Source of the DNA: Bacteroidales bacterium
Lineage (GTDB): Bacteria > Bacteroidota > Bacteroidia > Bacteroidales > WCHB1-69
Direction of reading: 5' to 3'
NCBI GenBank assembly: GCA_017551725.1
Contig: JAFZKY010000014.1
Span: forward strand, 2,721 to 66,720
Length of the DNA stretch: 64,000 bases
How positions within the stretch are numbered: position 1 is the stretch's first letter; every line of letters begins with the position of its first letter. Positions 20,644-37,183 of the stretch are shown here, piece by piece. The translations under genes and the position numbers were made by a program. Below the pieces are notes generated by a model. The model saw only the letters and a list, made by a program, of their open reading frames with translations. It was not told the origin of the DNA and ran no database searches.

Positions 20644-22596
20644 TTACTCTTTGCTTGACTCTTCCTCTATAAAATATTTGTCTGAAACAAAAAGCAATTT
20701 CTTTTTCTGCTCCTCGGAGAAGCTCAACCCATCAACCATATTTGCCATAAAATCCAACATTTTACAGCCTCTTTTCCAAATGGATTTCTTATCCCAGTTT
20801 TGTTCTTTAGAAATCTCCTGTTCGCTAAATGAGCCTGTTTCATATCTCCCTTGTTTCTTATTCCAAGAGTCGTTTTGTAAAGCGGAGTTTTTGGCATCTT
20901 TTAGTATCGTCAGATTTCCGAGGGTGTTAATGATTATTTTCTGTGCCCTGTTTCTCTCGTCTTCTGTTAAGACTTTTTCTCCTAAATAGTTTTCCATTTC
21001 TTTTTCCCAATTTGCTTCATAGCTTTGTGGCATGATATGTTCGATGTTTATTTCGTTGAAATTGTCCCAGCTCACATGTTCAAAATCTCCTTTTTGTTCT
21101 TTCAAATAGCATTCGTATTCCATCAAAAAGAACTTTAGACCGCCCCACCTATGGAAACCTTTATTACCACGTAAATACTCAAATAAATAATCAAATTGTC
21201 CAATCATAGCATCAACATTGCATGGCATTTCAAGTTTGGTCTGGAAATCCAAACATAATTCAGACAATGCTATTTCGTGTTGATGCAATTCTCTTGCACG
21301 ACTCGCATATGTCCTCTCATCGAGAACATTAAGTCCTAGAATACTGTTCCTGAATCCGATTTTCAAAAGCAAATCAATGCAGGAATCCGCTAATGAAACT
21401 TCTTCACTGGAAGCTTTAAACATAAGCAACTCAGCCAATAAAAGGCGCATTTCTTTTGAGGAATTCTGCAAAAGGAGTTTCTTTATTCTAACGTCATCAC
21501 TATTTACAACCTCATACCAATAAGGTACGAATGCGGCAATGTCCAATACATAGTTTTCGATTTTCTCATAGTCAACTTTTGTTTCATGAGCTGGATTATC
21601 CCCTTGACTTCTTGAATAGTCAAGCAAATAATTTGTCGAACGATTACAAAACATTTCAAAGACTTTTTTTTCTGCCACTTGTTCGGAAAAAACATAGTCT
21701 GTGGGTTTTCGTATTAGGGTGAGATGAGCGGAAAGAAATTCGTCTTCATCCAACATGTTGTTGGGATTCTTTCCTAAACAATCATAAATGATACGCCAAG
21801 CATCATTGATTTTTTTTGAAAGTAGCAAGATGTCAACATGATCATTAGGCAATTTTGCCGCCAAAAACAACAGTCTGTTCTTTAATTTTTCAAGAATTGT
21901 CAAAGGTTTTCCTCTGTTGTTCATGGTTTCAAACACAGCTTGAACTGAAAGGTTATCTGTAATATACTTCGTATCAAAAGCCAATGCGGTTTGCAGTCTT
22001 ATGAGCAAATCTTTTTTTTCTCCATCTGACAAAGCATTTATTTTGTCCTTGAACCAATTTTTCGCCAGCAGGAGATTGTTTGTATATACATTGACATGAT
22101 CATTAGGTAAAATTTCAGACACGTCTTCAAATATCTTATTCAGAAGGAATTGTCTATTCTTATCCTCTTTCTTGTATGAGAACAGGCAGAGTTTTGTTTC
22201 AGCACTTTCCTTCTTTCGATATATGTATCTTTTCATCAAAGCACTCCGTTCTTCAGTAATGGGATAAACCTTAATCAGTTCATGTAAAAGAATGACGATA
22301 GTTGTGAGTCTTTGTTGACCATCAACGACATCAAAAAACCTATCACCTTCATCTACAAACCATAATTCCTCTTGAGGAACACTATTTCGATTAATTTCCT
22401 GTAATGCGATAGTACCTGTATAGTGGCGACGGTATTCTTCAGTAACGTTATCAACTTCAATATCCCAAATGTCCTCCCACAGGTCGTTCCATTGACGCTC
22501 TCCCCAAGCGTATCCTCGTTGATAATTGGGGATTCTGAAAGCCTTGCTTCCAAACAACTCATTGAGTCTTAAATCTGATTCGTTTGTTCTTGCCAT
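20644..22596 (-). CDS. DUF262/DUF1524 protein, GmrSD-like type IV restriction enzyme
   Basis: The N-terminus has NYQRGYAW and DGQQRLTT (DUF262). The C-terminus has IEHIMPQS...LGNLTIL (His-Me finger, DUF1524). Confidence 0.85.
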   Translation of the reverse strand: MARTNESDLRLNELFGSKAFRIPNYQRGYAWGERQWNDLWEDIWDIEVDNVTEEYRRHYTGTIALQEINRNSVPQEELWFVDEGDRFFDVVDGQQRLTTIVILLHELIKVYPITEERSALMKRYIYRKKESAETKLCLFSYKKEDKNRQFLLNKIFEDVSEILPNDHVNVYTNNLLLAKNWFKDKINALSDGEKKDLLIRLQTALAFDTKYITDNLSVQAVFETMNNRGKPLTILEKLKNRLLFLAAKLPNDHVDILLLSKKINDAWRIIYDCLGKNPNNMLDEDEFLSAHLTLIRKPTDYVFSEQVAEKKVFEMFCNRSTNYLLDYSRSQGDNPAHETKVDYEKIENYVLDIAAFVPYWYEVVNSDDVRIKKLLLQNSSKEMRLLLAELLMFKASSEEVSLADSCIDLLLKIGFRNSILGLNVLDERTYASRARELHQHEIALSELCLDFQTKLEMPCNVDAMIGQFDYLFEYLRGNKGFHRWGGLKFFLMEYECYLKEQKGDFEHVSWDNFNEINIEHIMPQSYEANWEKEMENYLGEKVLTEDERNRAQKIIINTLGNLTILKDAKNSALQNDSWNKKQGRYETGSFSEQEISKEQNWDKKSIWKRGCKMLDFMANMVDGLSFSEEQKKKLLFVSDKYFIEEESSKE

Positions 22597-22675
22597 ATTT
22601 TTGAATAATTACTGATGATATGAAGTTTTTGATTTTGCAAAACTACAAAATAATCCTTTATACCTTTTACATTCC

Positions 22676-23170
22676 CTACAATATCTCCATCGCAATCCTT
22701 GCGCACGCCTCTGCATCCGCAAGGGCGTGATGATGGTTCGTCATCGGGTAGCCGCAAGCAGCTGCAACAGTATGTAACTGGTGGTCGGGGAGCTGCTGTC
22801 CGAAATGCTGTCGAGAGGCGCGGCAGGTGCAGTGAAAGTCGTAATAGGGATAGTCCATCTGATAAACACCAAACACCGCTCGTAGACAGCTTTCATCAAA
22901 CGAACTGTTGTGCGCCACAAGAGACAACCCCTCGATTAGCGGTTCTATCTGTCGCCACACATCAGGGAACAGAGGGGCGTTATCGGTATCTTCATGCGAG
23001 AGTCCGTGCACCTCCTGACAGAACCCAGCATAGTAGTTGGGTTCTGGCTTAATGAGACTATAGTACGTATCGACAATGAGCCCGTTGCGAACGACCACTA
23101 GACCCACGCTACATACGCTGCTGCGTTGTCCGTTGGCGGTTTCAAAATCAATGGCGGCGAAATCTTGCAT
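22676..23170 (-). CDS. DEDDh 3'-5' exonuclease (DnaQ/epsilon-like)
   Basis: Exo I is AIDFETA, Exo II is HNSSFDESCL and Exo III is HHALADAEA. The ATG at 23170 is preferred over the TTG at 23221. Confidence 0.8.
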   Translation of the reverse strand: MQDFAAIDFETANGQRSSVCSVGLVVVRNGLIVDTYYSLIKPEPNYYAGFCQEVHGLSHEDTDNAPLFPDVWRQIEPLIEGLSLVAHNSSFDESCLRAVFGVYQMDYPYYDFHCTCRASRQHFGQQLPDHQLHTVAAACGYPMTNHHHALADAEACARIAMEIL

Positions 23171-23217
23171 GATTGAACATTCTTTGGGCGTATTATAATG
23201 ATTGCTTTCTTCCACGC

Positions 23218-23937
23218 TCAATCCAAACTTATCAGCTGATCCATAAATACTTCTTGGCAGATATGATAAGTGGTCATGCGCATGATGTCAGGAATGCTGT
23301 AGTACTGACTGTTACAAAGTTCACAGAAGGAGTAGCAAAACAAGATTTCTTTGGGCAGTACGAGGTCTATTTCACATGGTTCTTTGTATGTATAGGAGTC
23401 AGAAGAGTCTCCATAGCAACTATATAAATTGTCCGTCATACTAACACTGCCTATCATGTCGAGAATCTCTATCATGTCGTTCCACTGTGAACCGTAGAAA
23501 CCGTCATCTTCCCTAATGATAAGTTTCGGGTTCTGAGCGTCGTGGCGATAGGTCAAACTGGAACTTAAACTGAAAAATGGTTGGATAGTCGTCAGCTGCT
23601 TGATTCCGTTCTTATGGATTTCCAAAACCTTAGCTTCCATCTGGAGAAGTCGTTTGTTGGTTATCTCCAAATCTCGAAAATAGGTCTCCGAGTAGTTCAA
23701 TTCAAACATTCGGTTCAGTAAGGTACAACGAATCTCGACTTGTTCTAATATTTCGTCCTCGTTACGGAGAATGGATATCCCCATGTTGTCTTCGTCGTAG
23801 TCTTCGTCGTAGTTTTCGCCGAAATCGCAAGCCAACCTCAAAATCTCACACTCGCACTGTCTGAGATACCGACGTAAAAAGTCTGTGTCGGTTTGCTCTT
23901 GTATCTTAATGATTTCTAGACTTTTTTGATTGGTCAT
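23218..23937 (-). CDS. Hypothetical protein
   Basis: 239-aa ORF with ATG start and an acidic DEDYDEDN patch. No motif was recognised. Confidence 0.6.
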   Translation of the reverse strand: MTNQKSLEIIKIQEQTDTDFLRRYLRQCECEILRLACDFGENYDEDYDEDNMGISILRNEDEILEQVEIRCTLLNRMFELNYSETYFRDLEITNKRLLQMEAKVLEIHKNGIKQLTTIQPFFSLSSSLTYRHDAQNPKLIIREDDGFYGSQWNDMIEILDMIGSVSMTDNLYSCYGDSSDSYTYKEPCEIDLVLPKEILFCYSFCELCNSQYYSIPDIMRMTTYHICQEVFMDQLISLD

Positions 23938-23962
23938 ATTCGTAATACGTTATATTGTTTTT

Positions 23963-24301
23963 TTACAACCACAACGACTGGAAATGATCACAGAAGAGCT
24001 TCAACCCCTCATGGATAAGTTTTTCCTGATCAACTTCCGATAATCGAGAATCACGATACTCAGGAAGGTTGGACGGGGAAGCTAACAGGTCAAAGGTGCG
24101 AATCATGGTACGCAATGCCCCCTGCCAATCCTTCTCACTGCGAAAGTCGCTGGGGACGGTGTGGTAACGCCGTTTCTCGGCCTCCAAGAACCGCCGCAGC
24201 TTCGTGGCGATGTGTGCTGCAAGCGTATGATACAAGTCCCATACGTCGGCGTATGATTCCTCCTGCACGTTATGCTTTAGTAATTGTCTTTTTTTTGCCA
24301 T
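23963..24301 (-). CDS. Hypothetical protein
   Basis: 112-aa ORF from the ATG at 24301. A TTTG...TAttTTTG promoter-like pair lies directly upstream on the minus strand. Confidence 0.55.
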   Translation of the reverse strand: MAKKRQLLKHNVQEESYADVWDLYHTLAAHIATKLRRFLEAEKRRYHTVPSDFRSEKDWQGALRTMIRTFDLLASPSNLPEYRDSRLSEVDQEKLIHEGLKLFCDHFQSLWL

Positions 24302-24447
24302 ATTAGTGACCGTTTGAATTACGTTGGCAAAAATAAAGCACAACTATGCCAAAATGAGGCGTAGTTGTGCTTGAGTTGAAAGAAAAAAGTTTTTCAAGCT
24401 TTTCTCTTATTTTTTCACTCAAATCCTAAAAAGATGAGTGGAAAAAA

Positions 24448-26388
24448 TCAGTTGTTACTTAACAAAGAATCTATCTGTTGCCTTGTTGTAAGCATTGCAC
24501 ATATCATTTCGGTCATGTCTGCAATAGTATTCCTCTCTTTAAAAGCATCAGTATCGGGAAACAGCACTCCAAATTGCATTCGCAAATAATGCTCGTTGTA
24601 ATATGGATAAGCCCCCTCTTCTAATGGTCGGCTTTCATAACATGTTATACGTTTGTGTGAGAATTTGTGGACGGTCACTTCATATTTCTGGCTTATTTCG
24701 GCATATTGATCTTTATATCCAAGTTCTTCAAGGTATTGTGGAACAGTATTCCACTGACAGTGCATATAGACAACCATTTGCAGATTCAGCCGTATGCGTC
24801 CTTTATCAGAATACGTATGCAAATTGACAGATATGTCTGGTGTCAATTGAATAGGGGCATTCTCCTGTACACGTGCAGAGGCAGGTGCAATAATGTGGTC
24901 ATATTGAGGCAATACCTTTTTCAAAGACACAATGAGCAAATCACGCACTTCTTTTAGAAAACTGCTATGATGATAATCCACAGGTGCTTGATCGTTAGCT
25001 TCTATGTTTGTGACTGCCGAGGAAAGCATTGCGGAACGAATATGGTCTTCAATAATTCTAGGTTCATCTAACCCTGAATCAATATATGATTCAGTCGTAT
25101 TTGCATTATGTTTCACATCTTGTTTGTGCGTTTCCACAATGACAGTACGCATTAAGTTAAGCAACATGGAGATGTTTAACGCCTTGTTGCGAAGATAATA
25201 GTCAGCAAAACATATACGGTAAAGCAATTGTTCCCATTCTTCGTCAAATTCTGATACTGAGGCCAAATTATTGCGAGTTGTTTCCTCTAATGGTTTGAGA
25301 TTCAACTGAAAAGCGATGTCTTCATTCCATGTTGTGAAACTAGGATATTTGTTCAAAACATTATATATTCTAGGGTAAGCAATCTGCATACTCACCAAGG
25401 CAAAACTTAGAAAAACTGAAAGATTGTCTTTTAAGAAATCTCCATCGATTTTGTCTTGTGCCTCATTGATACACTTAATGAGCGACAGGTTGTTGAGCAG
25501 GCGTTTCAACGAACGTGGATTGTTTCCCACGGTGATTTTTGCCGCTTCAGAAATATGCGACATCAGAACCTTGTTGTCGTGCTGTGTAGAGCTGCACCAA
25601 CCGATACTGAAGAGAGAATCTTGTAGAAACTTATCCACGCGATAATTGCTCACAGGCATAGTGAACGGCACTTGGATGATTTTGTCGAAGAAGGATCGAA
25701 ATTCGCGTTCATTGGTATCAGTGAGTTCCCCGAATTTGGGTTTCAGCCCTTTCACCACCACATCATAGTCTATGGCGAGGACAAAGACGCACTTTTCGAG
25801 TGTGAAGATGTTCTTCAGTAGCTCTAACAGTTCAACAGCTGTTGGCGGATTGATACGGTCAAGGTCATCGATGAAGAATATGAAACCACTTTTCCCGCTT
25901 TCCTTGACTTTTTCTTTTACCGTCTCTTGCAATTCGTCACGAAGTTCGCCCACAGATGAATTTTTAGTTGAAAAGAACTCGTCTATCGCGCTGCCGTCTC
26001 CGCCAGTGATGCCAATAGCTGTTTTTGCGGCCACAGCACTAATCCTCTTCACTTTTTCAAACAGTGCTTTTCGTTTGACCTCGTTGTTGCTGGCAGTCTG
26101 CTGCACCATTTTGGAAATGATTTGAATCAATGTGGATGACGAGTCGCGCATCAGGGCATACTCCCATGTGTTGATCCACACGGGGAGGAATTGCCCATCA
26201 GGTCCGCATAACTCATCTTGGAGAGTGTTCATCAAAGAGGTTTTGCCACTGCCCCACTCGCCTTGCAAAGCGATGGTTATTGGTGTGTTGGTGCCCTCTA
26301 TGAAGCGTATTAACCCCTGTGCATAGGGATGTATCCCGAAAGAATCCTTTTCGGGACAGGGGGTGTCGGGAATACTTGTGAATTTCAT
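24448..26388 (-). CDS. KAP-family P-loop NTPase
   Basis: Walker A is GEWGSGKTSLMN and Walker B is FFIDDLDR, typical of KAP NTPases. The ATG at 26388 is preceded by a TActTTTG box. Confidence 0.8.
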   Translation of the reverse strand: MKFTSIPDTPCPEKDSFGIHPYAQGLIRFIEGTNTPITIALQGEWGSGKTSLMNTLQDELCGPDGQFLPVWINTWEYALMRDSSSTLIQIISKMVQQTASNNEVKRKALFEKVKRISAVAAKTAIGITGGDGSAIDEFFSTKNSSVGELRDELQETVKEKVKESGKSGFIFFIDDLDRINPPTAVELLELLKNIFTLEKCVFVLAIDYDVVVKGLKPKFGELTDTNEREFRSFFDKIIQVPFTMPVSNYRVDKFLQDSLFSIGWCSSTQHDNKVLMSHISEAAKITVGNNPRSLKRLLNNLSLIKCINEAQDKIDGDFLKDNLSVFLSFALVSMQIAYPRIYNVLNKYPSFTTWNEDIAFQLNLKPLEETTRNNLASVSEFDEEWEQLLYRICFADYYLRNKALNISMLLNLMRTVIVETHKQDVKHNANTTESYIDSGLDEPRIIEDHIRSAMLSSAVTNIEANDQAPVDYHHSSFLKEVRDLLIVSLKKVLPQYDHIIAPASARVQENAPIQLTPDISVNLHTYSDKGRIRLNLQMVVYMHCQWNTVPQYLEELGYKDQYAEISQKYEVTVHKFSHKRITCYESRPLEEGAYPYYNEHYLRMQFGVLFPDTDAFKERNTIADMTEMICAMLTTRQQIDSLLSNN

Positions 26389-26454
26389 TGTTGCAAAAGT
26401 AAATTGTTTAAAAACGGAATGTCCAACACTCAATAGACCACCCCTATCGTTAAA

Positions 26455-26937
26455 TTAGTATCTTGCAATGAGACCACATTCCCAAATAATAGCAGCTAGT
26501 ATTGCTTCATCATAATAACCGTCAATAATCAGGATGGGATAATTTTCAGGGTGACGAGAATGGTCGCGTGCTTTAAAAATCTGACCATCTTCAATGATTA
26601 ATAAAGGATAGTTTTCAGGATGACGAGAATGATCGCGAGCTTCAAATACCATATCCCCCTCGATAATCATAAAAGGATAGTTTTCTGGGTGTTTAGAATG
26701 GTCACGAGCCTTATAGATCTCACCTCCATTAACAATCAGAAAGGGGTAATTATCAGAATGATGAGAATGGTCGCGAGCTTCAAAGATCATATCTCCATCG
26801 ATAATTATTGTTGGATAGTTTTCTGGTTGGCTAGAATGGTCACGAGCCTTAAATACTTCGCCATCCTTAATTATCATAAAAGGATAGTTTTCAGGGCGGC
26901 TAGAATGGTCACGAGCTTCATAAATCTTGGTAATCAT
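26455..26937 (-). CDS. Tandem-repeat protein: six 23-aa ARDHSxxPENYPxxIIxxGxxF(E/K) units
   Basis: The repeat was read directly from the translation. The ATG at 26937 follows the conserved leader motif. Confidence 0.7.
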   Translation of the reverse strand: MITKIYEARDHSSRPENYPFMIIKDGEVFKARDHSSQPENYPTIIIDGDMIFEARDHSHHSDNYPFLIVNGGEIYKARDHSKHPENYPFMIIEGDMVFEARDHSRHPENYPLLIIEDGQIFKARDHSRHPENYPILIIDGYYDEAILAAIIWECGLIARY

Positions 26938-26945
26938 AATAATAA

Positions 26946-26969
26946 CCCTAATACGTGTCGGGCGCAACT
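26946..26969 (-). promoter_or_regulatory. Conserved leader motif AGTTGCGCCCGACACGTATTAGGG (copy on minus strand)
   Basis: The same 24-25-mer occurs upstream of the ATGs at 30276 and 31727, 3-8 nt before the start codon. Confidence 0.5.
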
Positions 26970-27058
26970 GTTATTAATTTTACTATTTACTTATTGTAAT
27001 AATTTCTAACCGCAAAACTACAAAAAAATTATTTCTAATCAACAACCAATATTTTCCA

Positions 27059-27610
27059 TTACTCTATTTGAACTATAGTCGGTTTTGGCCCAGCAATAAC
27101 CTCCGCCACTTTCAGTTCCATGTCCCTAAAATAATCCTCTAACGGCATGTTGCCATCTGCCTTCGAAAGTTCCTCTTGCATGTCAATCACGTGAATGTCA
27201 TCCACCCCCAAGAAATGGCGGTCGAGGGGACGGTCATAGAGTTTGGAATCGAAGTGCGGTGGTAAAAGGTATATGAGATGCCGCTTGATGTTGGCGTGAT
27301 GCGCTTTGCACCACAAGAGGTTCACCCCCATGGCCGCAATTTGCAGTTCTGTGTTCGAGCATCTGTGCTTGACATTCGGATTCGGGTGCGGCGCGGGTAC
27401 CATGTTCGTGGGCGAGTCCCACACGAGGAGCCACACCTCCACAGACGGGTCGTATAGCCCATCCTCCGCACAATAGAGGTTCTCCCTGACAAAATTCTCA
27501 CTTTCCATCCATTCGTATGCGTATGAGGAGGGCAGGTGCTGCATAATACCCTCTTTGCACTGCACGGCGTTGTAGCCCACAGGAATAATGATGTGTTTCG
27601 TTCTATCCAT
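27059..27610 (-). CDS. Hypothetical protein
   Basis: 183-aa ORF with ATG start and a Bacteroidetes-type promoter upstream. It is more GC-rich than its neighbours. Confidence 0.6.
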   Translation of the reverse strand: MDRTKHIIIPVGYNAVQCKEGIMQHLPSSYAYEWMESENFVRENLYCAEDGLYDPSVEVWLLVWDSPTNMVPAPHPNPNVKHRCSNTELQIAAMGVNLLWCKAHHANIKRHLIYLLPPHFDSKLYDRPLDRHFLGVDDIHVIDMQEELSKADGNMPLEDYFRDMELKVAEVIAGPKPTIVQIE

Positions 27611-27711
27611 TTTCTTTGATGTTTAAATACGCTGGCAAAAATAGAACATCGCTGTGCCATATTTTGGCATATAGGCGTTATATTTTTGCAGCGTTCAAAA
27701 ATTGTAAGGAT

Positions 27712-29442
27712 ATGAAAAAAGAAAACATTTTGCAGACATTGAGTTTTCTTGCATTAAAAATGGAAAACTCTGAGACTATCTTATTAGAAGCCGTGGCACC
27801 CAATTCTATTGCTCATTTAGATCATGCATTGACACGGCAGAACGACTCAGCCATTCATAAAGAGTTTAGCAAAACAGAGATATGTGAGATTGTTAAAAAG
27901 TTGGAGGATGTCGCCAAATTCCTCGGTATCTCAACCATTCAGGCTGTTATTATGATGGTTGCCTTCTGCAATAAATTCCAAGACAATTATATAGATTGGA
28001 ACGATGTCCACAAATTTTTCAATGTAAAGAGTATGGTGCTGCTTCCTTTGAAAAAAGAATTTGACCGTCTGGTATCTGGTAAATTCCTAAAACGAGCTGG
28101 GAAAAGACATTCTGAATATTATGATATTGAGCAAAAAGTAGTGGACTCCGTAATGAATGAACATCCATTTGACCCTTGTATATTGAAAGAAGCACGTCTT
28201 GATCGATATAAATTTGTCAACGAAATTTCCGATTTGATCGAGCTACGTAGTGATGACGAGATATCCACCTCCGATCTTTTTGAACGTTCATATGAGATGG
28301 AACAACAGAACAATACTCTTACTTTTGTTCAGAATGTCAAGAAATTGAATCTTGAGACTAAAGACAGAGTCTTATTCTATGAGATTTGCGACGATTTTCT
28401 TGCTCATGGTGAAACGGGAATCAATTGTACGCTGAAGGACATGTATAGTAATCCTAGCACTCGTTTTCGAATTGCAAAGGAGTTGATGGACGAAAAGCAG
28501 ATTCTGCAAAAGTTAGATTTAGTGATCCTCCTTCGTGACACAATATTCTCTGATAGTAATTTGACCCTGACCGAAAAAGGGAAACAACTCTTTTTAGAGG
28601 AAGATTTCGAGCTTTTTGCCAAATCCAAAAATCGAGACCAGAAAACAATATACCCCGAAGACATTCAAGAAAAGTCCTTGTTTTATGATGAAGAACTCTC
28701 GCGACAGCTAAATCTGCTGAAAGAAAATCTCCAAGAAGAGCGTTTCTCAGAGCTGCAAAAACGATTGGAAGAACAGTCGCTACCTAAGGGGGTTGCTGCC
28801 ATCTTCCATGGGCAACCTGGCACAGGGAAAACCGAAACTGCGATGCAAATTGCCAAAGCTACAGGTCGTGCAGTGTGTCACGTGGACATAGCAAGTTCCA
28901 AAAGTTGCTGGTTTGGTGAAAGCGAAAAACTTATTAAGCGTATATTTACCGATTATGCTGGACTGTGCAAAAAATCCCCTCTTAAGCCGATTCTACTTTT
29001 CAACGAAGCAGACGCTCTCTTTTCCAAACGCAAGGATAGCATTTCATCAAACGTGGCGCAAACAGAGAATGCCATCCAAAACATTATCCTTGAAGAAATG
29101 GAAAAACAGGATGGAATACTCATAGCTACCACCAATCTCATAGATAACTTGGACAGAGCTTTTGAACGACGTTTTCTATTCAAAATCCGTTTCAACAATC
29201 CCACGGTGGAAGCAAAACAGTCTATCTGGAAGAGCAAACTCTCTTGGTTGTCTGAAAACGAAAGTCGCATACTCGCAGAACGCTACAATTTCTCAGGCGG
29301 CGAAATCGACAACATCGTCCGCAAGGTTATTATGGATGAGGTACTCAACGGAATACACCCTGACATGCAATTCGTTGAAGAACTATGCCGCTATGAAAAG
29401 ATTGGCAACAAGGAGACGAACTTCATTGGGTTTAGAAAATGA
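27712..29442 (+). CDS. Classic-clade AAA+ ATPase with a long uncharacterised N-terminal region
   Basis: Walker A is GQPGTGKTETA, Walker B is ILLFNEADALF, and sensor/Arg-finger region ATTN...RAFERRF is present. The ATG at 27712 follows a TAttTTTG box. Confidence 0.85.
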   Translation: MKKENILQTLSFLALKMENSETILLEAVAPNSIAHLDHALTRQNDSAIHKEFSKTEICEIVKKLEDVAKFLGISTIQAVIMMVAFCNKFQDNYIDWNDVHKFFNVKSMVLLPLKKEFDRLVSGKFLKRAGKRHSEYYDIEQKVVDSVMNEHPFDPCILKEARLDRYKFVNEISDLIELRSDDEISTSDLFERSYEMEQQNNTLTFVQNVKKLNLETKDRVLFYEICDDFLAHGETGINCTLKDMYSNPSTRFRIAKELMDEKQILQKLDLVILLRDTIFSDSNLTLTEKGKQLFLEEDFELFAKSKNRDQKTIYPEDIQEKSLFYDEELSRQLNLLKENLQEERFSELQKRLEEQSLPKGVAAIFHGQPGTGKTETAMQIAKATGRAVCHVDIASSKSCWFGESEKLIKRIFTDYAGLCKKSPLKPILLFNEADALFSKRKDSISSNVAQTENAIQNIILEEMEKQDGILIATTNLIDNLDRAFERRFLFKIRFNNPTVEAKQSIWKSKLSWLSENESRILAERYNFSGGEIDNIVRKVIMDEVLNGIHPDMQFVEELCRYEKIGNKETNFIGFRK

Positions 29443-29519
29443 GTGTCTAATAATTCGCATAGGTCGCACCATTTTCTATCTAATATGTGCGCTGTTTTAC
29501 CATATTAAAACATGCCGTT

Positions 29520-30149
29520 ATGTTAAAATTTTTACGGGAAACACTTTCTATCGGGGACTTTGTGGAGGTGGAAACTTCCACAGGATTAGTGCGTGGCTCC
29601 ATCTTGGAAATACCACCTGATTGTTTGGTGATGCTAACTGATGGCGAACTACACGAATATTCAGAGGAGCAGTTGTTGAGTATCAAATACTTTTCCGATG
29701 ATCACGATGCCTATCGGGATTGTTATATCCAAAAGTTTATACCAGAAGAAAAGAGTGAGAGATATTTTTGGGCAGAAAACCACAATGGATCGTTGTGTTG
29801 CACGAATTTCGACAACATCATCACAATTTTTATGGGCTGGAATATGCGTTTCCAACGCGGTCATCTTGACTTGCCCGACTTGATTGATGTGGAGGACGAA
29901 TACTATTATATAGAAGTCTTGAGCAATGATTGTGATGATTGTTTTTCGGACTATATCACTTCCGTCAAGTTACCGAAACATTTGAAGAGTATTGAGCCAC
30001 TATTCATAGGAAGAATCTTCCTCCAGAAAATATATGTTCCCTATACTTTAGTTTATTCGGGAGGGTACAAAATAGGCGGTTGCACCACATGTCAAGTTTT
30101 CGACTTGAATGGAAAACTTTTGGATTGGGAGTTTGAAGAGGATTGGTGA
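29520..30149 (+). CDS. Hypothetical protein (Cys-rich)
   Basis: 209-aa ORF with no motif recognised. The start is uncertain (GTG 29487 or ATG 29520). Confidence 0.55.
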   Translation: MLKFLRETLSIGDFVEVETSTGLVRGSILEIPPDCLVMLTDGELHEYSEEQLLSIKYFSDDHDAYRDCYIQKFIPEEKSERYFWAENHNGSLCCTNFDNIITIFMGWNMRFQRGHLDLPDLIDVEDEYYYIEVLSNDCDDCFSDYITSVKLPKHLKSIEPLFIGRIFLQKIYVPYTLVYSGGYKIGGCTTCQVFDLNGKLLDWEFEEDW

Positions 30150-30213
30150 ACAGTGCCGCACTTTTGCACACTTCCGATATATTTTTGCCGCAGGTTCCAT
30201 CCCATACGCCCTC

Positions 30214-30273
30214 GCCGAAAAGCGTTCAATAGAGTAGGCATTTTTAAAAGTTGTGCCCGACACGTACTAGGGA
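30214..30273 (+). promoter_or_regulatory. Conserved ~60-nt leader: GCCGAAAAGCGTTCAATAGAGTAGGCA...AGTTGTGCCCGACACGTACTAGGGA
   Basis: A near-identical block is at 31656-31719. The distal 25-mer is also at 26946-26969 on the minus strand. Confidence 0.5.
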
Positions 30274-30275
30274 GA

Positions 30276-30515
30276 ATGATTATGCCGCAAATGATAGTCT
30301 ATAATGGGGAACTGATACGTATTAGCCCCAAAAACAAGAGAAAAATAGAGGTGTCTACCAATCATGGTGGATCATGGATGACCCGCTGTGTTGGATCTGC
30401 CAGCACTGGAGAATTCCTTGATTTGGTAAACAATGGCTCTGAGATAATTGCCACCACCGAAAACGGGCTGTTCGTCTCCTCCAACAACGGAGGATCTTGG
30501 ATAAGAAGATGTTAA
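30276..30515 (+). CDS. Small protein with two Asp-box/BNR-like SxNxGGSW motifs
   Basis: 79-aa ORF carrying STNHGGSW and SSNNGGSW. Confidence 0.5.
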   Translation: MIMPQMIVYNGELIRISPKNKRKIEVSTNHGGSWMTRCVGSASTGEFLDLVNNGSEIIATTENGLFVSSNNGGSWIRRC

Positions 30516-30540
30516 CAATTATCCCTAAAAATATACCACT

Positions 30541-30819
30541 ATGAGAAATTTAAAAAACAACATGCTGGCACTGATACTTGTGATTTGCAATTTTGCTGTC
30601 TATGCAGAAACTGCTTCAGAAGCTGCCAACCCTTCAGAATCCAACATTTTCATTGAGATCTTGGTTTACGCTTTGATTTTCGGAATTCCATTGTTGGTGA
30701 TTATCCGAAAAATTAGGCGAAAAATCAGGAACTTCAAGGAGGATGTAAAAAGTGGCGGTTTCGGAGAAGCAACCATGAGCCGTTTGGAAGACCATTTCGA
30801 CAGAAAGAACAAGAAATAG
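30541..30819 (+). CDS. Small membrane protein (signal peptide plus one TM, basic cytoplasmic tail)
   Basis: 92 aa. An N-terminal hydrophobic leader ends in YAE, a second TM (ILVYALIFGIPLLVII) follows, then RKIRRKIR. Confidence 0.55.
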   Translation: MRNLKNNMLALILVICNFAVYAETASEAANPSESNIFIEILVYALIFGIPLLVIIRKIRRKIRNFKEDVKSGGFGEATMSRLEDHFDRKNKK

Positions 30820-30839
30820 CAGACTAAACGCTTCTCGTC

Positions 30840-31679
30840 ATGAATCTTAAATTCTTTTTCAGTTCCATTGTTTCGAACCGCTATTTTGAGTGGGCGATAA
30901 CGATTGTTATTCTCGTGAACGCCGTACTTATCGGTATCGAACTAAATGTTTGTGATCCCACCATCGGACTGATACAGAGGATTATTTTGCTGATTTTTAC
31001 CGTGGAAATCCTGATGCGATTCATGGCGAGAGAAAATGTGAGGGAGTTTTTCTCTAACGGTTGGAACATCTTCGACCTCACTCTTGTGTTGATTGGTTAT
31101 ATTCCAGAGGATCTCTTTGCCAATGCTTCCGCCATGATGGCTATTAGGGTGCTCCGTGTATTGCGCGTACTTCGATTGCTCAGGGCTGGAAAAGAAATCA
31201 AACTTATTACTACTGTGCTTACCAAATCGATGGTGTCTATGGTGTGGTACGTCATCCTGTTTGCGATTTTCATTTACCTGTTTGCTATAATAGGGGTAAG
31301 CATGTTCAAGTTGCCCGACCCCGAAAAGCTAACGCTAGAAGACCGCTCAAGATACGAACAGTTTATGCGTGAAGTTCACAACGCCCCCGACAACTCTCCT
31401 GACCCGTTCGGGTCGCTGTCGGAAGCAATGTTTACTCTATTCCGCGAGCTAACAGGCGAGGATTGGACAGACCTGCGTTACAACACTATCTCCGCCTACG
31501 AGTACGGCGTTATCCGTGTGAATCCTGTGGTCATCACCACCTACCACATAGTTTGGTTTTCGCTGTCAGTCTTCCTGTTGCTGAACTTAGTTACAGGATC
31601 AATCATCAACAACTATCAAAACATAAAGGAAGAGCAAAATAATCAAAACGCCCCAGCCGAAAAGCGTTCAATAGAGTAG
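30840..31679 (+). CDS. Voltage-gated cation channel, single-domain 6TM BacNav/NaChBac family, Cav-like selectivity filter
   Basis: S4 is RVLRVLRVLRLLR (Arg every third residue). The pore loop is FTLFRELTGEDWTD. At 279 aa, the length matches NaChBac-type channels. Confidence 0.85.
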   Translation: MNLKFFFSSIVSNRYFEWAITIVILVNAVLIGIELNVCDPTIGLIQRIILLIFTVEILMRFMARENVREFFSNGWNIFDLTLVLIGYIPEDLFANASAMMAIRVLRVLRVLRLLRAGKEIKLITTVLTKSMVSMVWYVILFAIFIYLFAIIGVSMFKLPDPEKLTLEDRSRYEQFMREVHNAPDNSPDPFGSLSEAMFTLFRELTGEDWTDLRYNTISAYEYGVIRVNPVVITTYHIVWFSLSVFLLLNLVTGSIINNYQNIKEEQNNQNAPAEKRSIE

Positions 31680-31719
31680 GCAAAAAATTCTAGCAGTTGC
31701 GCCCGACACGTAATAGGGA
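31656..31719 (+). promoter_or_regulatory. Conserved ~60-nt leader, second full copy (overlaps the last 8 codons of the channel gene)
   Basis: GCCGAAAAGCGTTCAATAGAGTAGGCA...AGTTGCGCCCGACACGTAATAGGGA. The ATG follows at 31727. Confidence 0.5.
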
Positions 31720-31726
31720 AACGAAA

Positions 31727-31948
31727 ATGAGTAAGGTTTATAGAATCACACCGAAAGCTATTCACAGAACAAACAACACCGTTTTGACTCCTGAGATGGA
31801 AATCATCGTGACTTTAGAGCGTCATACATCCGACCCATTCTACAATGGTGCAAAAGAAATCAAAGCCATGTATATGGACAGATATGGCTTTGATTATGAG
31901 CGGGCGAATGCAACAAAAGCTTGGTTTGATTATGAGAGATTAGACTAA
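31727..31948 (+). CDS. Small conserved hypothetical protein (possibly DUF6140-like)
   Basis: 73-aa ORF. The family assignment is from memory of similar small Bacteroidales proteins and is unverified. Confidence 0.5.
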   Translation: MSKVYRITPKAIHRTNNTVLTPEMEIIVTLERHTSDPFYNGAKEIKAMYMDRYGFDYERANATKAWFDYERLD

Positions 31949-31967
31949 CAATTTGATAAATACAACA

Positions 31968-31997
31968 TGACGGGCAGGATTTTTCTCCTGCCCGTCA
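31968..31997 (+). terminator. Strong hairpin terminator closing the plus-strand block
   Basis: TGACGGGCAGGA-TTTTTC-TCCTGCCCGTCA, a 12-bp perfect stem. Confidence 0.7.
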
Positions 31998-32092
31998 TAT
32001 TGAAAAACCTTTACTTGGTATACTTTTCTATAACATTTACACCAACGGAACCATATACAAATCTTGTTGATTATCAATGATTCACATGCATA

Positions 32093-32136
32093 GTTCTCTT
32101 AAAGTTCTCTTAAAGTTCTCTTAAAGTTCTCTTGAA
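32093..32136. repeat. 11-bp tandem repeat GTTCTCTTAAA x4 (last unit degenerate)
   Basis: Read directly. An inverted copy TTTAAGAGAA lies at 32147-32156, next to the stop of the 32157-33845 gene. Confidence 0.85.
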
Positions 32137-32156
32137 ATGCTCATACTTTAAGAGAA

Positions 32157-33845
32157 TTATTTTAGCCTCCATAACTTCTTCTCGCCAAAAACTATTTTGT
32201 CTGCTTTTCGTAGTGACGTTAGCAAGTTCCCAATCTTGGAAACCTTCTGTTTGTCAGTCAAAGCTTCAGGTAATTTCGTCATCAACAGCGTATCTATTTC
32301 TGGACGACTCATTGTCACATGTTGATCCAAAGCTTTCAGGATAAGATCCTTGTAGTAATTATCATCGAATCCTTTGTTACGAGTATATTCTGCTTTTTGG
32401 CCTGTAGCTTTAGCCACACTCTTGGCAAAATACAATGCATTCTTTCGGCCTTCAATCAGTTTACGTTTTCTCAAGTAAGCAATTTCATCGTCACTTAGTG
32501 GGCGATGGGTTTGTAACCTGCTCAACATTTCTATGTCAAGCAAAGTCAGTGTTTTGTCTCTGGTCAAGAGCATAGCATAGTCAATGTCCACCACTTTGCC
32601 GATAATCGTCACTTTAACCCTGTCATCACTAAACTCATAATCAGGCATGGGGAAAAGGCGTTCACGTTGCTTGTTAAACATCCGTCTGATACCGCTGCCA
32701 ATCGTGTCCACCATGCCCAATTCCACCATTGCTGTTGCCAGAAACCTGTTACGATAATGTTCCTCAGGGGCATCGTTTATCAACACATTCTTAATGCTGT
32801 TGGGAATGAAAGTCCCCAAATTGGTAAAGATCAGTCGGTCTTCTTCCTCTATTACGTTGATCATGCCATAACGTCCATAGTCCTGATGAGCTATGGCATT
32901 ATTTAATGCTTCCCGAATGATAAAAGGGTCGTATGTATCCAGTTCATCTGGCACTAGCGAAAGAAGCTCTGGATTCATATATCTGTACTTCCAGTTACGT
33001 ATTTTCCTGTAAACCGTATTAGCTGCAATGACAAACGGACATGTTTCGATGGAAAAATCTTTCTCTTCACCTTTGGAATCCTTGTATATCCACCTAATAC
33101 GTGCAACAGCTGGCGAAATAAGATGTTCGCTCTCGGTGCGTCCCAACAATAATATTGCGGTATTGGTTATCTGGCCTTGTTTGGTGATCTTTGCTTTGTT
33201 CAGAAACTTCACATCATCCCACGATTTCATCTCCGCCATCAAGTCCTCGTGTTTCTTGGCATACATCTTGCGAGCTTCTTTGATAGCATCGGGATCAAGA
33301 TCGTCGAATGTGGCATCTTTTACAATCTCGGCACTCCAGTCTTTCTGTGAATTGTATATCTGGCGAACAAAGTCTGGGAAATCTTTGAGCTTCGTCAGAT
33401 TGCTTCCAACCCTCACATAAGCAGCTCCCTTGAAATTTACAGGTTCTCCTGCCGCAGCCTGTATCTCGAAAATAACAATGTGTTTGCCTTCGTACTCAAA
33501 CTCCTCAATTTCAAAGGGGATAATGGGCGAACAGTTTTTTCTAAGCCATAGTTCATAATCCTGATTGCCATATTTAGCTGTCGGCATTTTCAGATTGGTT
33601 CCAACCACATTCCATGTTCCATCCTCCACTCCTAAAATCAAATAACCATGTGGCCTGTATTTCAGGCAGGCCGAATTAGAAAGACCTGAGATATAGTTCC
33701 CCACTCCCTCATACGTAACACTGCATCGAGACTCGCCGATATTAGTTTTAAACTCCATCCACTCCGTTTCTCCAGCACTTTGGCGTTGGCGAGCCTGTGC
33801 CAATAGATCCTCCAACAATATATGTTGTTCTTCAATTGTTTTCAT
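32157..33845 (-). CDS. AlbA_2 (Schlafen-like) DNA-binding domain protein with HATPase_c_4-like and C-terminal wHTH regions (often mislabelled RecG-like)
   Basis: The N-terminus has EWMEFKTN...GYLILGVEDG, typical of AlbA_2. The central region has NAIAHQDY...GSGIRRM. Confidence 0.7.
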   Translation of the reverse strand: MKTIEEQHILLEDLLAQARQRQSAGETEWMEFKTNIGESRCSVTYEGVGNYISGLSNSACLKYRPHGYLILGVEDGTWNVVGTNLKMPTAKYGNQDYELWLRKNCSPIIPFEIEEFEYEGKHIVIFEIQAAAGEPVNFKGAAYVRVGSNLTKLKDFPDFVRQIYNSQKDWSAEIVKDATFDDLDPDAIKEARKMYAKKHEDLMAEMKSWDDVKFLNKAKITKQGQITNTAILLLGRTESEHLISPAVARIRWIYKDSKGEEKDFSIETCPFVIAANTVYRKIRNWKYRYMNPELLSLVPDELDTYDPFIIREALNNAIAHQDYGRYGMINVIEEEDRLIFTNLGTFIPNSIKNVLINDAPEEHYRNRFLATAMVELGMVDTIGSGIRRMFNKQRERLFPMPDYEFSDDRVKVTIIGKVVDIDYAMLLTRDKTLTLLDIEMLSRLQTHRPLSDDEIAYLRKRKLIEGRKNALYFAKSVAKATGQKAEYTRNKGFDDNYYKDLILKALDQHVTMSRPEIDTLLMTKLPEALTDKQKVSKIGNLLTSLRKADKIVFGEKKLWRLK

Positions 33846-33936
33846 ATAAGCTGTCTTTGTTCAAATCCATTCTACAATGATAGAAAATTTCATTTTGCAA
33901 AAGTACACAATTTCCGCCAATCATATTTTAAAACCA

Positions 33937-35274
33937 TTAGTCATCATCTAAGACACTTTCATCATTCATGTCTGGCAAGAGTGTAGCTGCTTGATCCGTA
34001 GGCAGGGCTTCAATATCCCGAAGTTTACGATTAATTGCTTTTGTACGTCTGCCCTGTAGTTGCTCGATAGTCTCCGAGGCCGTGTCAATGTTCTTTTTGG
34101 CCTTCTCTAGGAGATCGCCAAATTTAGAGAATTCTGTTTTTACCGCACCCAAAGTTGTCCAAACATCGCTACTTCGTTTTTCAATAGCCAATGTTCGGAA
34201 CCCCATTTGCAAACTGCTGAGCAAGGCACCCAAAGTAGTTGGGCCCGTGACAAGCACATTATATTTGTCCCTCAATTCTTGTGATAAACTTGAACGGCGA
34301 ATGACTTCTGCATAAATGTTCTCAACAGGAACAAACATTATGGCAAAATTGGTCGTATCGGGAACAGAAATGTATTTGCTATTGATGTCTTTCGCCATAG
34401 CAATAATAGTGTTCTCAAACTGTTTGGATTTCGATTTGATACCATCCGCATCCGCATTGTCTATGGCATCAATGTATTGATCGTAAACATCCTTGGGAAA
34501 TTTGGAATCTATTGGCAGATATACAGTACCTTTAGAATCACCTTTGCCAGGTAGTTTAATGGCGAATTCTACACGCTCAGAACTTCCTCGTACAGTGGCG
34601 ACATTCTCATCATACTGTTCAGGTGATAATATCTGTTCAAGTAACAATTTGAGCTGAAACTCTCCAAAATTACCTCGTATTTTCACATTGGTCAGGGCAT
34701 TCTTTAAGCCTCCGACATCGGAAGCGAGGTTTTTCATCTCGCCTAAACCTTGTTGAACGCTTTCAAGCTGCTCGCTGACCATTTTGAAAGATTGTCCAAG
34801 CCTATCGTTCAAGGTCTTCTGTAACTTTTCATCAACGGTTGCCCGCATTTCGTCCAATCTCTTTTCGGTAGTTTGGATAAGGAACTCCTGACGTTTGTCC
34901 ATGGCAGAGAATCTCTCCTTTTGAGCTTCTACCATTCTTTCTGTATTCTTATCAAAACCTTCCTGAAATTTCTCAGACATTGTTGACAGCTTCTCTTCGA
35001 CAACGATACGTAGTTTATCTACAGTGCCAGATATTTCCATCCGCATCTGACCCACGTTATCAGATAATTCTTTCCTGATTTTGTCAATGTTGTCGGAAAG
35101 CTCATGCCGAGCATTTCTGTTTTCATCCAAAATTTTACTCTCCAAACGGTCAAATTCTTTTAAAAAGATTTCAGACGTTGCGGACTTTCTTGAGAAAAAA
35201 CTGACCATCACAATGACGGTGCAGATGGTGCAAATCGCCATCAATGCTAACAAAATGAATAAAATCGTGTTCAT
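33937..35274 (-). CDS. rmuC: DNA recombination protein RmuC
   Basis: An N-terminal TM is followed by a long coiled coil. The C-terminal RmuC nuclease-like domain shows VEFAIKLPG...YLPIDSKFP...FAIMFVPVE. Confidence 0.85.
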   Translation of the reverse strand: MNTILFILLALMAICTICTVIVMVSFFSRKSATSEIFLKEFDRLESKILDENRNARHELSDNIDKIRKELSDNVGQMRMEISGTVDKLRIVVEEKLSTMSEKFQEGFDKNTERMVEAQKERFSAMDKRQEFLIQTTEKRLDEMRATVDEKLQKTLNDRLGQSFKMVSEQLESVQQGLGEMKNLASDVGGLKNALTNVKIRGNFGEFQLKLLLEQILSPEQYDENVATVRGSSERVEFAIKLPGKGDSKGTVYLPIDSKFPKDVYDQYIDAIDNADADGIKSKSKQFENTIIAMAKDINSKYISVPDTTNFAIMFVPVENIYAEVIRRSSLSQELRDKYNVLVTGPTTLGALLSSLQMGFRTLAIEKRSSDVWTTLGAVKTEFSKFGDLLEKAKKNIDTASETIEQLQGRRTKAINRKLRDIEALPTDQAATLLPDMNDESVLDDD

Positions 35275-35392
35275 AACGGTATTAGGATTAAAGTTTTGAC
35301 ATACAAAAATAGCATTTTTCGGAATGAATTGTACAGAATTTTATGCTACAACTATAGCTAAAACGATTTTATATGCCTGCCTATCCAAATGG

Positions 35393-35704
35393 TTAATCAC
35401 CAAAATCACACAGGTCGCCTATAAGATCAAAGTCATCTTCCATCACGTCTCTAGCTTGAGCTGGTTCCCGATAGTATATGCCAATTTGTTCCGCAGGCAA
35501 TTTTACTCCAAATGCCGAAGCCCATGAGCGGATTTGGTCAAGTACATCCACTCCGTCAAAGTGATTGGAATCGACTAGACATTGTACGTAGTATCTGCCG
35601 TTCTCTTCTATAACCTCAACGGATACTTTTGTTGGCTCTCCGTTAAGAACCATTTTGGTTTCAAATTCGTTTCTTTTTCCCATTGTTTCAATACTATTAG
35701 TCAT
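35393..35704 (-). CDS. Hypothetical small acidic protein
   Basis: 103-aa ORF from the ATG at 35704, with an acidic C-terminus (EDDFDLIGDLCDFGD). Confidence 0.5.
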   Translation of the reverse strand: MTNSIETMGKRNEFETKMVLNGEPTKVSVEVIEENGRYYVQCLVDSNHFDGVDVLDQIRSWASAFGVKLPAEQIGIYYREPAQARDVMEDDFDLIGDLCDFGD

Positions 35705-35744
35705 ATTTTTGTTGTTTTTTTTCGCAAAATAGGTCAAGAGTGCT

Positions 35745-37001
35745 CTATATCACCTCCTTCAGCAGCTGTTCCTTCAGTTCCTTACATTGGATCATTGAAA
35801 TTGTTCTCAACGAATTAATATAACCCTGTGTGGTTGTCACATTGGCATGTCCCATGTCGCTCTGAATATCCGCCATGTTTCTACCATTCTCCAGCGACCA
35901 AGTGGCAAAGGTATGCCTCGCCTGAGCCATTGTGATGAATGGAAGACCAAGATCCTCGGCAACAATGTGAAGACCAATATTAGCCCTATCGTTTATGTCA
36001 TGCACTCGGTCGTTTATTTGCTTTTCCGTTTTTGCATTACTCAAGAATGGAAAGATGTAGTCGTTTGGGTGAGATGGATTTATAGAACCATATTTTTTTA
36101 TGAGTTCCATTGTCGCATCCAAAAAGAATATTGATACTGTGATTGAACGTCGTCTGGTTTTATGTCGGATGAACTGAACCATCCAATTATTTTCCACTTT
36201 GCTAATATTTTTATTTTTAAGTCGCAATAAATCACTTAGATAGTGTCCATTTAACAAAAATGATAAAGCGAACATGTCTCGACCAAACTCTGCCTTAGGG
36301 TCAGAACTTTTATATGCAAGTATTTGTTTCAAGCTTTCGCATGACAGACCATAATTAACCTTTCTCGTAGACGTGAGCGAATATTTTTTGAATGGTTTTT
36401 TATCATCAACATAACCCCTGTCCACAGCAAAATTGCAGACTGCTCTAATACACCTGAAATGAGCATTGATCGTGTTTTGCGAAATGTCAGGTTGATGTTT
36501 GCGCATAAACATATCCAGCTTGGGGATCATCTCTTCTGTTATTTCTTCTATTGTTAGTTTTTCTTTGTATTTTGTCAACCAGTTTAAGGCGGTTTTGTAT
36601 GCTCCCTTCGTCCTGTCGGATATTGGTCGAGGGTTAGTCGTATCAGACATGTATTCAGCAAAAACGCTTCGTACATCGTATACACTGCTGATCTTTTTGT
36701 GGACAATCCTTTTGTAGTCTTGTGTGAAGGACGGGAAATTGAAATTTTCGCCAAGCTTTTTGATAATATCTATGGCAGCATTATAAGCGGGGAGCACTTC
36801 CTCGTATGCTGTTTTATACATTTTCAAGTTCTTGTTGTTGAATTCCTGCACGGTCAATTTAGTTCTGCCTCCAGCTGTATAATACCTCGTGTTCCTATCA
36901 TGGGTAACTCTCAACACCAGTATCCTTCTGTCGGGATTGCGGTCAGCATCCCTACGGGGAGACTTGGGGTTGCGGATAATATTTACACTCGGTTTATTCA
37001 T
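35745..37001 (-). CDS. Tyrosine-type site-specific integrase (Bacteroidetes Arm-DNA-binding N-terminus)
   Basis: The catalytic region has RHTFATW...MGHANVTTTQGY. It lies next to the island end. Confidence 0.9.
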   Translation of the reverse strand: MNKPSVNIIRNPKSPRRDADRNPDRRILVLRVTHDRNTRYYTAGGRTKLTVQEFNNKNLKMYKTAYEEVLPAYNAAIDIIKKLGENFNFPSFTQDYKRIVHKKISSVYDVRSVFAEYMSDTTNPRPISDRTKGAYKTALNWLTKYKEKLTIEEITEEMIPKLDMFMRKHQPDISQNTINAHFRCIRAVCNFAVDRGYVDDKKPFKKYSLTSTRKVNYGLSCESLKQILAYKSSDPKAEFGRDMFALSFLLNGHYLSDLLRLKNKNISKVENNWMVQFIRHKTRRRSITVSIFFLDATMELIKKYGSINPSHPNDYIFPFLSNAKTEKQINDRVHDINDRANIGLHIVAEDLGLPFITMAQARHTFATWSLENGRNMADIQSDMGHANVTTTQGYINSLRTISMIQCKELKEQLLKEVI

Positions 37002-37157
37002 TTCGCATTAGAGCCTTTCTTGATCATATAATAAAAATCCACAAAAAAAATTCAACAAAAAACAAAAAATATCAACGGTAATTAAATGAAGTATCAATGA
37101 TGAATAAAAAAATATCAAGTGCACATAAAAGGAGAATGCCAATGGTGCACATAAAAA

Positions 37158-37183
37158 GGTACTAACAAAGGTACTAACATTTT
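37158..37183 (+). repeat. Tandem GGTACTAAC-AAA-GGTACTAAC-ATTTT, candidate integrase arm-type site (right arm)
   Basis: Identical to 13082-13107. Confidence 0.5.

Follow-up and report, generated by a model that had tools for sequence, protein, structure and literature searches.

A conserved linear box at a near-fixed distance before Bacteroidales start codons: a candidate translation-initiation element

Introduction

A linear sequence element, here called the box, lies directly upstream of the start codons of three small genes in a 64,000-nucleotide (nt) stretch of DNA from a Bacteroidales bacterium (GenBank assembly GCA_017551725.1, contig JAFZKY010000014.1, positions 2,721 to 66,720 of the forward strand), hereafter the window. 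The box is conserved across families of gut, rumen and termite Bacteroidales, lies on the sense strand at an almost constant distance from ATG, is combined with a variety of upstream leaders and has no intrinsic structure. It is tentatively read here as a sequence-specific element of the translation-initiation region in messenger RNA (mRNA), either an operator or an enhancer, accompanied by a weak AGGG that resembles a Shine-Dalgarno (SD) sequence; this reading is given a little less than an even chance. A wider proposal is considered possible but doubtful, namely that the box is a dedicated, sequence-specific initiation signal of Bacteroidales, read by a conserved factor or ribosomal site, that it defines a post-transcriptional, horizontally portable regulon comprising small exported accessory proteins, and that it can be stacked behind the Rfam motif DUF805b or behind a riboswitch-like attenuator.

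Bacteroidales dominate gut and rumen communities, and the selection and regulation of messages at initiation are poorly understood. The SD sequence is used by only about 2% of genes in Bacteroidia, and the anti-SD sequence is masked on their ribosomes (PMC10783764); thus, a separate initiation signal or operator is plausible in this lineage. The box offers a concrete handle on start-codon selection or translational control in Bacteroidales, and it may serve as a ready-made part for expression engineering in Bacteroides. Moreover, the small secreted accessory proteins that it marks, some of them encoded in the defence island of the window, form a class that is perhaps co-regulated. It would also account for cassette boundaries that coincide with leaders in such islands.

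Conservation, distribution and spacing

The consensus of the box is (T)A(R)(M)A-GTTGYGCCCGACAC-R-N-A-Y-N-AGGG, followed by 7–9 nt and then ATG. In the window, the 24-nt pattern AGTTGYGCCCGACACGTAHTAGGG has three exact matches (Table 1), and the motif was matched in none of 100 dinucleotide-preserving shuffles. The initial annotation, made from the bare sequence of the window, had placed such a motif ahead of three start codons and had described the three downstream proteins as non-homologous, and no significant mutual similarity was found among them. One start codon probably has to be moved, however. The BNR-like gene had been started at ATG 30276, whereas both the family-wide AGGG-to-ATG spacing and a homologue at another locus (L100, beginning MPQLIV...) favour ATG 30282, 9 nt after AGGG, which is most likely the true start. 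Two further copies are present elsewhere in the genome (C34:1068 and C37:45349), each 7–8 nt before ATG; one precedes a gene for a lipoprotein-like protein of 410 amino acids (aa) and the other a TM2-domain gene. A motif search of the whole genome and of related genomes, which had been proposed as a check, thus gave five copies in this genome and more than 240 independent copies across Bacteroidales genomes and metagenomes, so that recent local duplication does not suffice as the sole origin of the motif.

Scanning a single genome for each prokaryotic species gave at least 120 stretches with the box. Among the matches listed, Muribaculaceae, Paludibacteraceae, Prevotella/Segatella, Phocaeicola, Bacteroides, Parabacteroides, Marinilabiliaceae and Azobacteroides are represented, and all records are labelled Bacteroidales except one metagenome-assembled genome (MAG), which bears the label Lachnospiraceae (L080, DATESN010000001.1). 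The flanks of that contig are Bacteroidales-like, and its label probably reflects faulty binning. Phocaeicola plebeius TF10-3AC and Segatella sinensis CLA-AA-H174 are cultured carriers of the box. When metagenomes were scanned for variants lacking G at position 15, at least 119 distinct copies were obtained, the majority of them in samples from termite gut and rumen. When 201 genomes of the order were sampled evenly, 10 carried the box at up to two mismatches, mostly in one or two copies each (range 1–5), and the present genome had the highest copy number with five; as two of the six mismatched hits look coding, the true share is slightly below about 5%. In a phylum-wide sample, matches to the 14-mer core outside the order were only chance matches inside coding sequence. 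Of 2.9 million viral contigs, only 10 contain the box, always as a single copy, and neither the plasmid collection nor 50,697 cultured-phage records gave a match. It is apparently undescribed. It gave no Rfam 15 match at E ≤ 1 (cmscan of window positions 20000–40000 and loci L001–L005), and no relevant paper containing its core 10-mer GCCCGACACG was found. In kind, it resembles the orphan leader motifs of Bacteroidota, but it differs from them in being linear, in adjoining the start codon and in being an optional addition to other leaders.

Strand and spacing are strict. Every copy listed lies on the sense strand of the next open reading frame (ORF). The distance from AGGG to ATG is 7–9 nt in 96 of the 125 genome copies among the matches listed, and most of the remaining ones are artefacts of an earlier alternative start codon. 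Likewise, ATG follows 5–11 nt after the box in 114 of the 119 metagenome variants listed, nearly all of them at 7–9 nt. Rare linker variants with one additional base retain the arrangement of AGGG, 8 nt and ATG.

Leaders and genes combined with the box

The sequences upstream of the box are of four kinds. In the first, the motif TAnnTTTG, the consensus of Bacteroides sigma-A promoters, lies 24–44 nt before the box, as in copy 1 of the window, in the class with the promoter block described below and in viral contigs; the box is therefore inside the 5′ untranslated region (UTR) in those copies. In the second, DUF805b or a related hairpin lies 5–13 nt before the box. The third is a structured leader, conserved and about 200 nt long, that has a promoter of its own, and the fourth is the stop codon of a preceding co-directional gene, located 1 to about 290 nt away. 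Additionally, tandem small genes have their own box per cistron, and at one locus (L068) the second box follows almost directly after the previous stop codon. For copy 1, the promoter element TAGTTTTG, a −7 element of the Bacteroides type, was present as initially annotated and places the box within the 5′ UTR; its distance to GTTG is 44 nt, and the figure of about 55 nt given earlier was not borne out.

The box follows none of about 35 high-scoring DUF805b copies that were examined in other genomes, and only 5 of the 32 copies of the long leader. The box is thus an optional add-on module inserted between differing leaders and the start codon. As its distance to ATG is strict while its upstream distance is free, its function appears to be tied to the start codon and not to the promoter. 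Sense orientation, AUG spacing, free promoter spacing and operon-internal copies together argue for such a start-codon-linked function. A shared RNA element or operator, which was one of the possibilities named in the initial annotation, would fit both the strict strand and the strict ATG distance.

The proteins encoded behind the box are unrelated and mostly small, with a median length of about 140–146 aa. A signal-peptide-like N-terminus was recognised in about 59% of them by a simple heuristic, and many are lipoproteins, TM2-domain proteins or zinc-ribbon membrane proteins. The short median length and the frequent signal-peptide-like N-termini suggest that the box genes form a coherent class of small exported accessory proteins. 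A further recurrent upstream context, GGTTACTTC..TACTCTATATCTCATAAACAGACAAAATAACAAACTTAGAA, was observed at seven loci (L164, L167, L068, L090, L083, L027 and L110) and is conserved across contigs, including viral ones.

Proposed mode of action

In the proposed mechanism, the box of 23–24 nt would be a portable cis-acting leader element, transcribed within a 5′ UTR or an operon-internal spacer. Measured from AUG, it spans approximately −31 to −9 and fills the upstream half of the stretch on which a 30S subunit lands; it would be read as linear RNA, consisting of GUUGYGCCCGACAC, a flexible linker of 5–6 nt and an AGGG held 8–9 nt from AUG. The reader would be a putative trans-acting factor that most Bacteroidales hosts could supply. 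Binding of this factor may either block or promote 30S loading, which would make the box a translational operator or an enhancer, respectively, and AGGG would possibly contribute as a weak SD-like contact. The three island genes and the two other box genes of the genome may form one post-transcriptional regulon. Furthermore, the box, as it precedes many genes, could provide 23–28 nt of identity for the exchange of cassettes between leaders.

The box shares several properties with SD sequences and with translational operators adjacent to them. It lies just upstream of the start codon, with strict spacing and on the sense strand, and it contains a purine-only AGGG with weak anti-SD complementarity. 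The predicted pairing of AGGG(A) with the 3′ tail of 16S ribosomal RNA (rRNA) amounts to −3.8 to −7.9 kcal/mol, compared with −14.5 kcal/mol for the canonical SD, and its spacing is SD-like. Unlike known translational operators, such as those of phage coat proteins and ribosomal proteins, which are hairpins or pseudoknots, the box is linear. It also differs from the SD sequence in that its conserved 23-nt part is mostly non-complementary to the 16S 3′ end and in that the host lineage largely ignores SD (PMC10783764).

Several points weigh against a translation-initiation element. The conservation, strand, spacing, modularity and lack of intrinsic structure of the box are observed; that it acts in the RNA, that it influences translation and that a trans-acting factor exists are steps that we infer, and the invariance of the consensus positions is partly set by the search patterns used. 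The patchy spread (about 5% of genomes, with one to five copies each) would be unexpected if a universal machine read the signal. The box folds no better than shuffled sequences (z −0.5 to +1.2), and covariation was not found in it. Its complementarity to 16S rRNA is limited to one stretch of 8 nt (h35/36 region), which is within chance, and no significant complementarity was detected to 23S and 5S rRNA, 43 transfer RNAs (tRNAs), transfer-messenger RNA, signal recognition particle RNA or RNase P RNA. When the ORFs within about 4 kb of the box were clustered all against all, no protein family occurred in more than 10 of the about 120 loci listed. Moreover, an uninterrupted asymmetric run of at least 14 invariant bases is, to our knowledge, unusual for a protein-bound RNA operator.

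Other RNA-based candidates were tried and rejected. A structured cis-regulatory RNA of the riboswitch type is not supported, as the minimum free energy is within that of the shuffles and the sole consensus pairing is an invariant CCC/GGG. A helix between Y5 and R15 can be discarded too, since metagenome variants with A15 have C5 in 76 cases and U5 in 28, showing no covariation. No consistent duplex was predicted between the box and the long leader that precedes it. The box is not coding, and an upstream ORF ending at the TAR flank was also dismissed; TAA or TAG is present there in only 61% of the copies, and in-frame ATGs are no commoner than those in other frames. With regard to small RNAs, 6S RNA was not found in this MAG, and a genome-wide antisense scan allowing G-U pairs gave only coding-region noise and no intergenic candidate, in a genome that is 81% complete and may have unannotated small RNAs.

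Alternative explanations

The box could also be read as DNA. It would then be a promoter with its transcription start at GGG and a leader of 11–12 nt, served by a phage-type single-subunit RNA polymerase or by a specialised host holoenzyme; this is held to be unlikely. Its likeness to T7 class III promoters is in register. The T7 consensus from −12 to +3, CGACTCACTATAGGG, can be set against CGACAC(R)NAYNAGGG of the box; CGAC-C coincides with T7 −12 to −7 and is followed by a variable AT-rich stretch (−5 to −2), A and GGG, and in both cases the block is continuous, asymmetric and about 23 bp long. A short fixed leader would account for the fixed ATG distance. Additionally, a strict TAnnTTTG is absent within 200 nt upstream in 173 of 239 copies, and some copies lie only 14–27 nt behind an intrinsic terminator. 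However, a T7-like polymerase (PF00940) was not found in five box-bearing genomes (G000, G124, G088, G090 and G130), in a search made without a positive control. The rare single copies in viral contigs are not those of a multi-copy phage promoter, and the cultured-phage and plasmid collections gave none. Many copies stand behind a promoter of their own, behind DUF805b or behind the attenuator-like leader of about 200 nt, and none of these would serve a purpose with a transcription start inside the box. Furthermore, the linker variants with one additional base keep the AGGG–ATG spacing and not the box–GGG spacing, and the conservation has no −35/−10 split.

A cassette-junction sequence used for recombination was the other possibility named in the initial annotation. 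As the primary role of the box, with units of box plus gene swapped between leaders, this is quite unlikely, although a part of the idea is supported. Nucleotide homology begins exactly at the box, which therefore also behaves as a cassette junction, from window position 31694 at L094 and from 30246 at L100; beyond these points, both loci have the promoter block, whereas the window has DUF805b or the channel gene. In 61 homologous pairs of box genes, identity is 39% over the 30 nt preceding the box, compared with 64% in the spacer and 56% in the coding DNA, and the box itself is unchanged. As the upstream identity collapses while the genes are homologous, the inherited unit appears to be the box together with its gene, re-attached to different leaders. 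In the window, direct repeats of DUF805b plus box (copies 2 and 3) bracket three genes, namely the BNR-like gene, a gene for a 92-aa protein and the channel gene, and copy 1 is inverted relative to both. Homologous recombination at these copies would delete or invert segments and thereby swap leaders in register; in a variant of this explanation, inversion of 3.3-kb or 4.7-kb segments between the inverted copies would exchange promoter–gene pairs.

However, no recombinase family is among the families that recur at the about 120 loci listed. The box has no inverted-repeat core as is typical of the sites of tyrosine or serine recombinases, most genomes have only one or two isolated copies, and both the strict ATG spacing and the sense orientation would be left unexplained. 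Any conserved block that is shared would be expected to coincide with breakpoints. The box is similar to integron attC sites and cassette junctions in that unrelated small ORFs in succession are each immediately preceded by a conserved sequence, at which the homology breakpoints lie. Yet, it has no integron integrase, no imperfect inverted repeat and no arrays, and it belongs 5′ to the gene, with a constant spacing to ATG.

Still less probable is a double-stranded DNA operator for a transcription factor, which would repress or activate, a repressor possibly acting as a roadblock. High conservation without RNA structure suits recognition of DNA by a protein, and a WYL regulator is encoded in the island. 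However, the site is neither palindromic nor a direct repeat, copies occur inside operons directly after stop codons, and the distance to the promoter varies from about 15 to more than 250 nt, yet the distance to ATG is fixed. Nor is any regulator linked to the box. As the WYL family is present at only 5 of the about 120 loci, this window included, and no recombinase recurs, neither the WYL regulator nor the island integrase is a general partner of the box.

The least probable alternative is passive tuning without a trans-acting factor, in which a mini-hairpin of CCC(7–9) and GGG(21–23) would hide the SD-like AGGG or insulate the AU-rich initiation region from leader structure; this stem is the sole pairing predicted in every copy (RNAalifold) and the AGGG has SD-like spacing and weak anti-SD complementarity, but the stem of 3 bp with a loop of 11 nt (−3.6 kcal/mol) is no better than in shuffles and would not explain why the 14-nt GUUGYGCCCGACAC is invariant across families.

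The DUF805b block

Copies 2 and 3 of the box share an upstream block of 35 nt (30206–30240 and 31648–31682), which is 94% identical between them, in agreement with the near-identical block first reported. This block, "GCCGAAAAGCG...AGAGTAGGCA", is the Rfam motif DUF805b (RF02914). Upstream of copy 3, positions 31656–31679 encode the last residues of the ion channel as described earlier, the ORF ending in ...APAEKRSIE and a stop codon. The motif supplies the channel gene with its final 11 codons and its stop codon, which suggests that this gene was inserted upstream of a pre-existing leader. The block before copy 2 is intergenic, as had been stated; the accompanying idea that it is a relic of another gene's end does not hold, since it corresponds to a known leader motif, into which the channel ORF merely runs. 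Copies 2 and 3 with their DUF805b blocks may represent the local duplication of a two-part leader of 70 nt.

The box is not part of the DUF805b model, which stops at ...AGGCA, 8–12 nt before the box. DUF805b was found in 120 of 151 genomes of the order, usually as the motif, an AU-rich spacer of 18–25 nt and ATG, without a box. It belongs to clan CL00115 and has several features in common with the box. It is a short conserved 5′-UTR element of Bacteroidales ahead of many unrelated genes, often for small exported accessory proteins, at an approximately fixed distance from ATG; it is a candidate cis-regulatory leader of Bacteroidota and adjoins the box in copies 2 and 3 and at several other loci. 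The two differ in that DUF805b is modelled as a hairpin and tail 18–25 nt before ATG and is widespread, whereas the box shows no sequence relationship to it, lacks a significant fold, stands 8–9 nt before ATG and is present in about 5% of genomes. The main text of Weinberg 2017 contains no discussion of DUF805. On termite-gut contigs (for example L238, L252, L258, L290, L296, L302, L309 and L346), a different small hairpin, CCUGCGAAGCCGUUAGAGCAGG(A)AAA, often lies 6–8 nt before the box. It may be a relative of DUF805 or DUF805b with a conserved GAAGCCG in its loop.

Features of the window and its island

The three box copies of the window lie in an AT-rich block with 41% G+C, compared with 51.6% for the genome. 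This block is a defence-type island (window 17640–37330), whose genes include a D12 methyltransferase, a WYL-WCX regulator, a PLD nuclease, GmrSD, an exonuclease, a KAP NTPase, an AAA ATPase, an Ion_trans channel, Schlafen/AlbA_2 and RmuC. The coordinates are collected in Table 1.

Table 1. Box copies, associated leaders and genes, and other features of the window
Feature	Position	Strand	Remarks
Box copy 1, AGTTGCGCCCGACACGTATTAGGG	26946..26969	−	AGGG 8 nt before ATG 26937
Box copy 2, AGTTGTGCCCGACACGTACTAGGG	30249..30272	+	AGGG 9 nt before ATG 30282 and 3 nt before ATG 30276
Box copy 3, AGTTGCGCCCGACACGTAATAGGG	31695..31718	+	AGGG 8 nt before ATG 31727
160-aa protein of 23-residue repeats	26455..26937	−	Downstream of box copy 1
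77-aa BNR/Asp-box-like protein	30282..30515	+	Downstream of box copy 2; 79 aa from the alternative start 30276; homologue at L100 also behind a box
73-aa DUF6140-like protein	31727..31948	+	Downstream of box copy 3; homologues behind a box at L094 and L104
−7 promoter element TAGTTTTG, Bacteroides type	27013..27020	−	For box copy 1; called from sequence
Promoter block, GTGCCGCACTTTTGCAC...TATATTTTTGCCGC	30153..30191	+	Upstream of DUF805b and box copy 2
DUF805b-type motif, small hairpin and AGAGUAGGCA tail	30205..30240	+	RF02914, 32 bits, E 1.2e-5, below gathering score 35.6; 8 nt upstream of box copy 2
DUF805b motif	31647..31682	+	RF02914, 37.4 bits, above gathering score 35.6; 12 nt upstream of box copy 3
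Ion_trans channel gene	30840..31679	+	3′ end reads into the DUF805b motif; inside the three-gene segment between the DUF805b and box repeats
WYL-WCX regulator	19056-20093		
Tyrosine integrase	35745-37001		At island end
Partial tRNA match	37276-37330		Beside the integrase

The promoter block upstream of copy 2 has paralogues at 27654–27692 (also delimited as 27622–27692) and 24314–24363, and it directly precedes the box at L053, L087, L094, L100 and L104. The promoter blocks, of the form GTGCC(N4)TTTNGCA...TATATTTTTGC(N)GC, have an inverted repeat TGCCA..TGGCA over the −33 region. From its sequence, the block looks like a common operator and promoter of the island family. The gap from the terminator of the 73-aa gene to the end of the Schlafen/AlbA_2 gene contains about 4–5 units of an 11-nt tandem repeat, AGTTCTCTTAA (32092–32146). 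The adjacent terminator hairpin (31956–32095) has a weak match to Rfam IS128, at 34.8 bits against a gathering score of 80.

The long leader

The structured leader of about 200 nt (alignment A1) has its own TAnnTTTG promoter and precedes diverse lipoprotein and TM2 genes. In the present genome it occurs at L004:830–1040 (contig C34), and a diverged subtype occurs at L005:1500–1800 on the minus strand (contig C37). With a strict pattern, 32 copies were found in 21 of 401 genomes of the order, with up to nine per genome. The leader has no Rfam match. RNAalifold predicts long-range helices with compensatory changes, GTGAGAA/TTCTCAC and columns 62–64 with 178–180. Its closing helix, GAAGCGUUAUGCU/GGCAUA..ACGCUUC, would compete with a terminator-like hairpin, GUGGCAUA..UGCCACGCUUCUUUU, and the predicted architecture is thus riboswitch- or attenuator-like. 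The conserved GTGA is often where a short ORF (ML...) ends.

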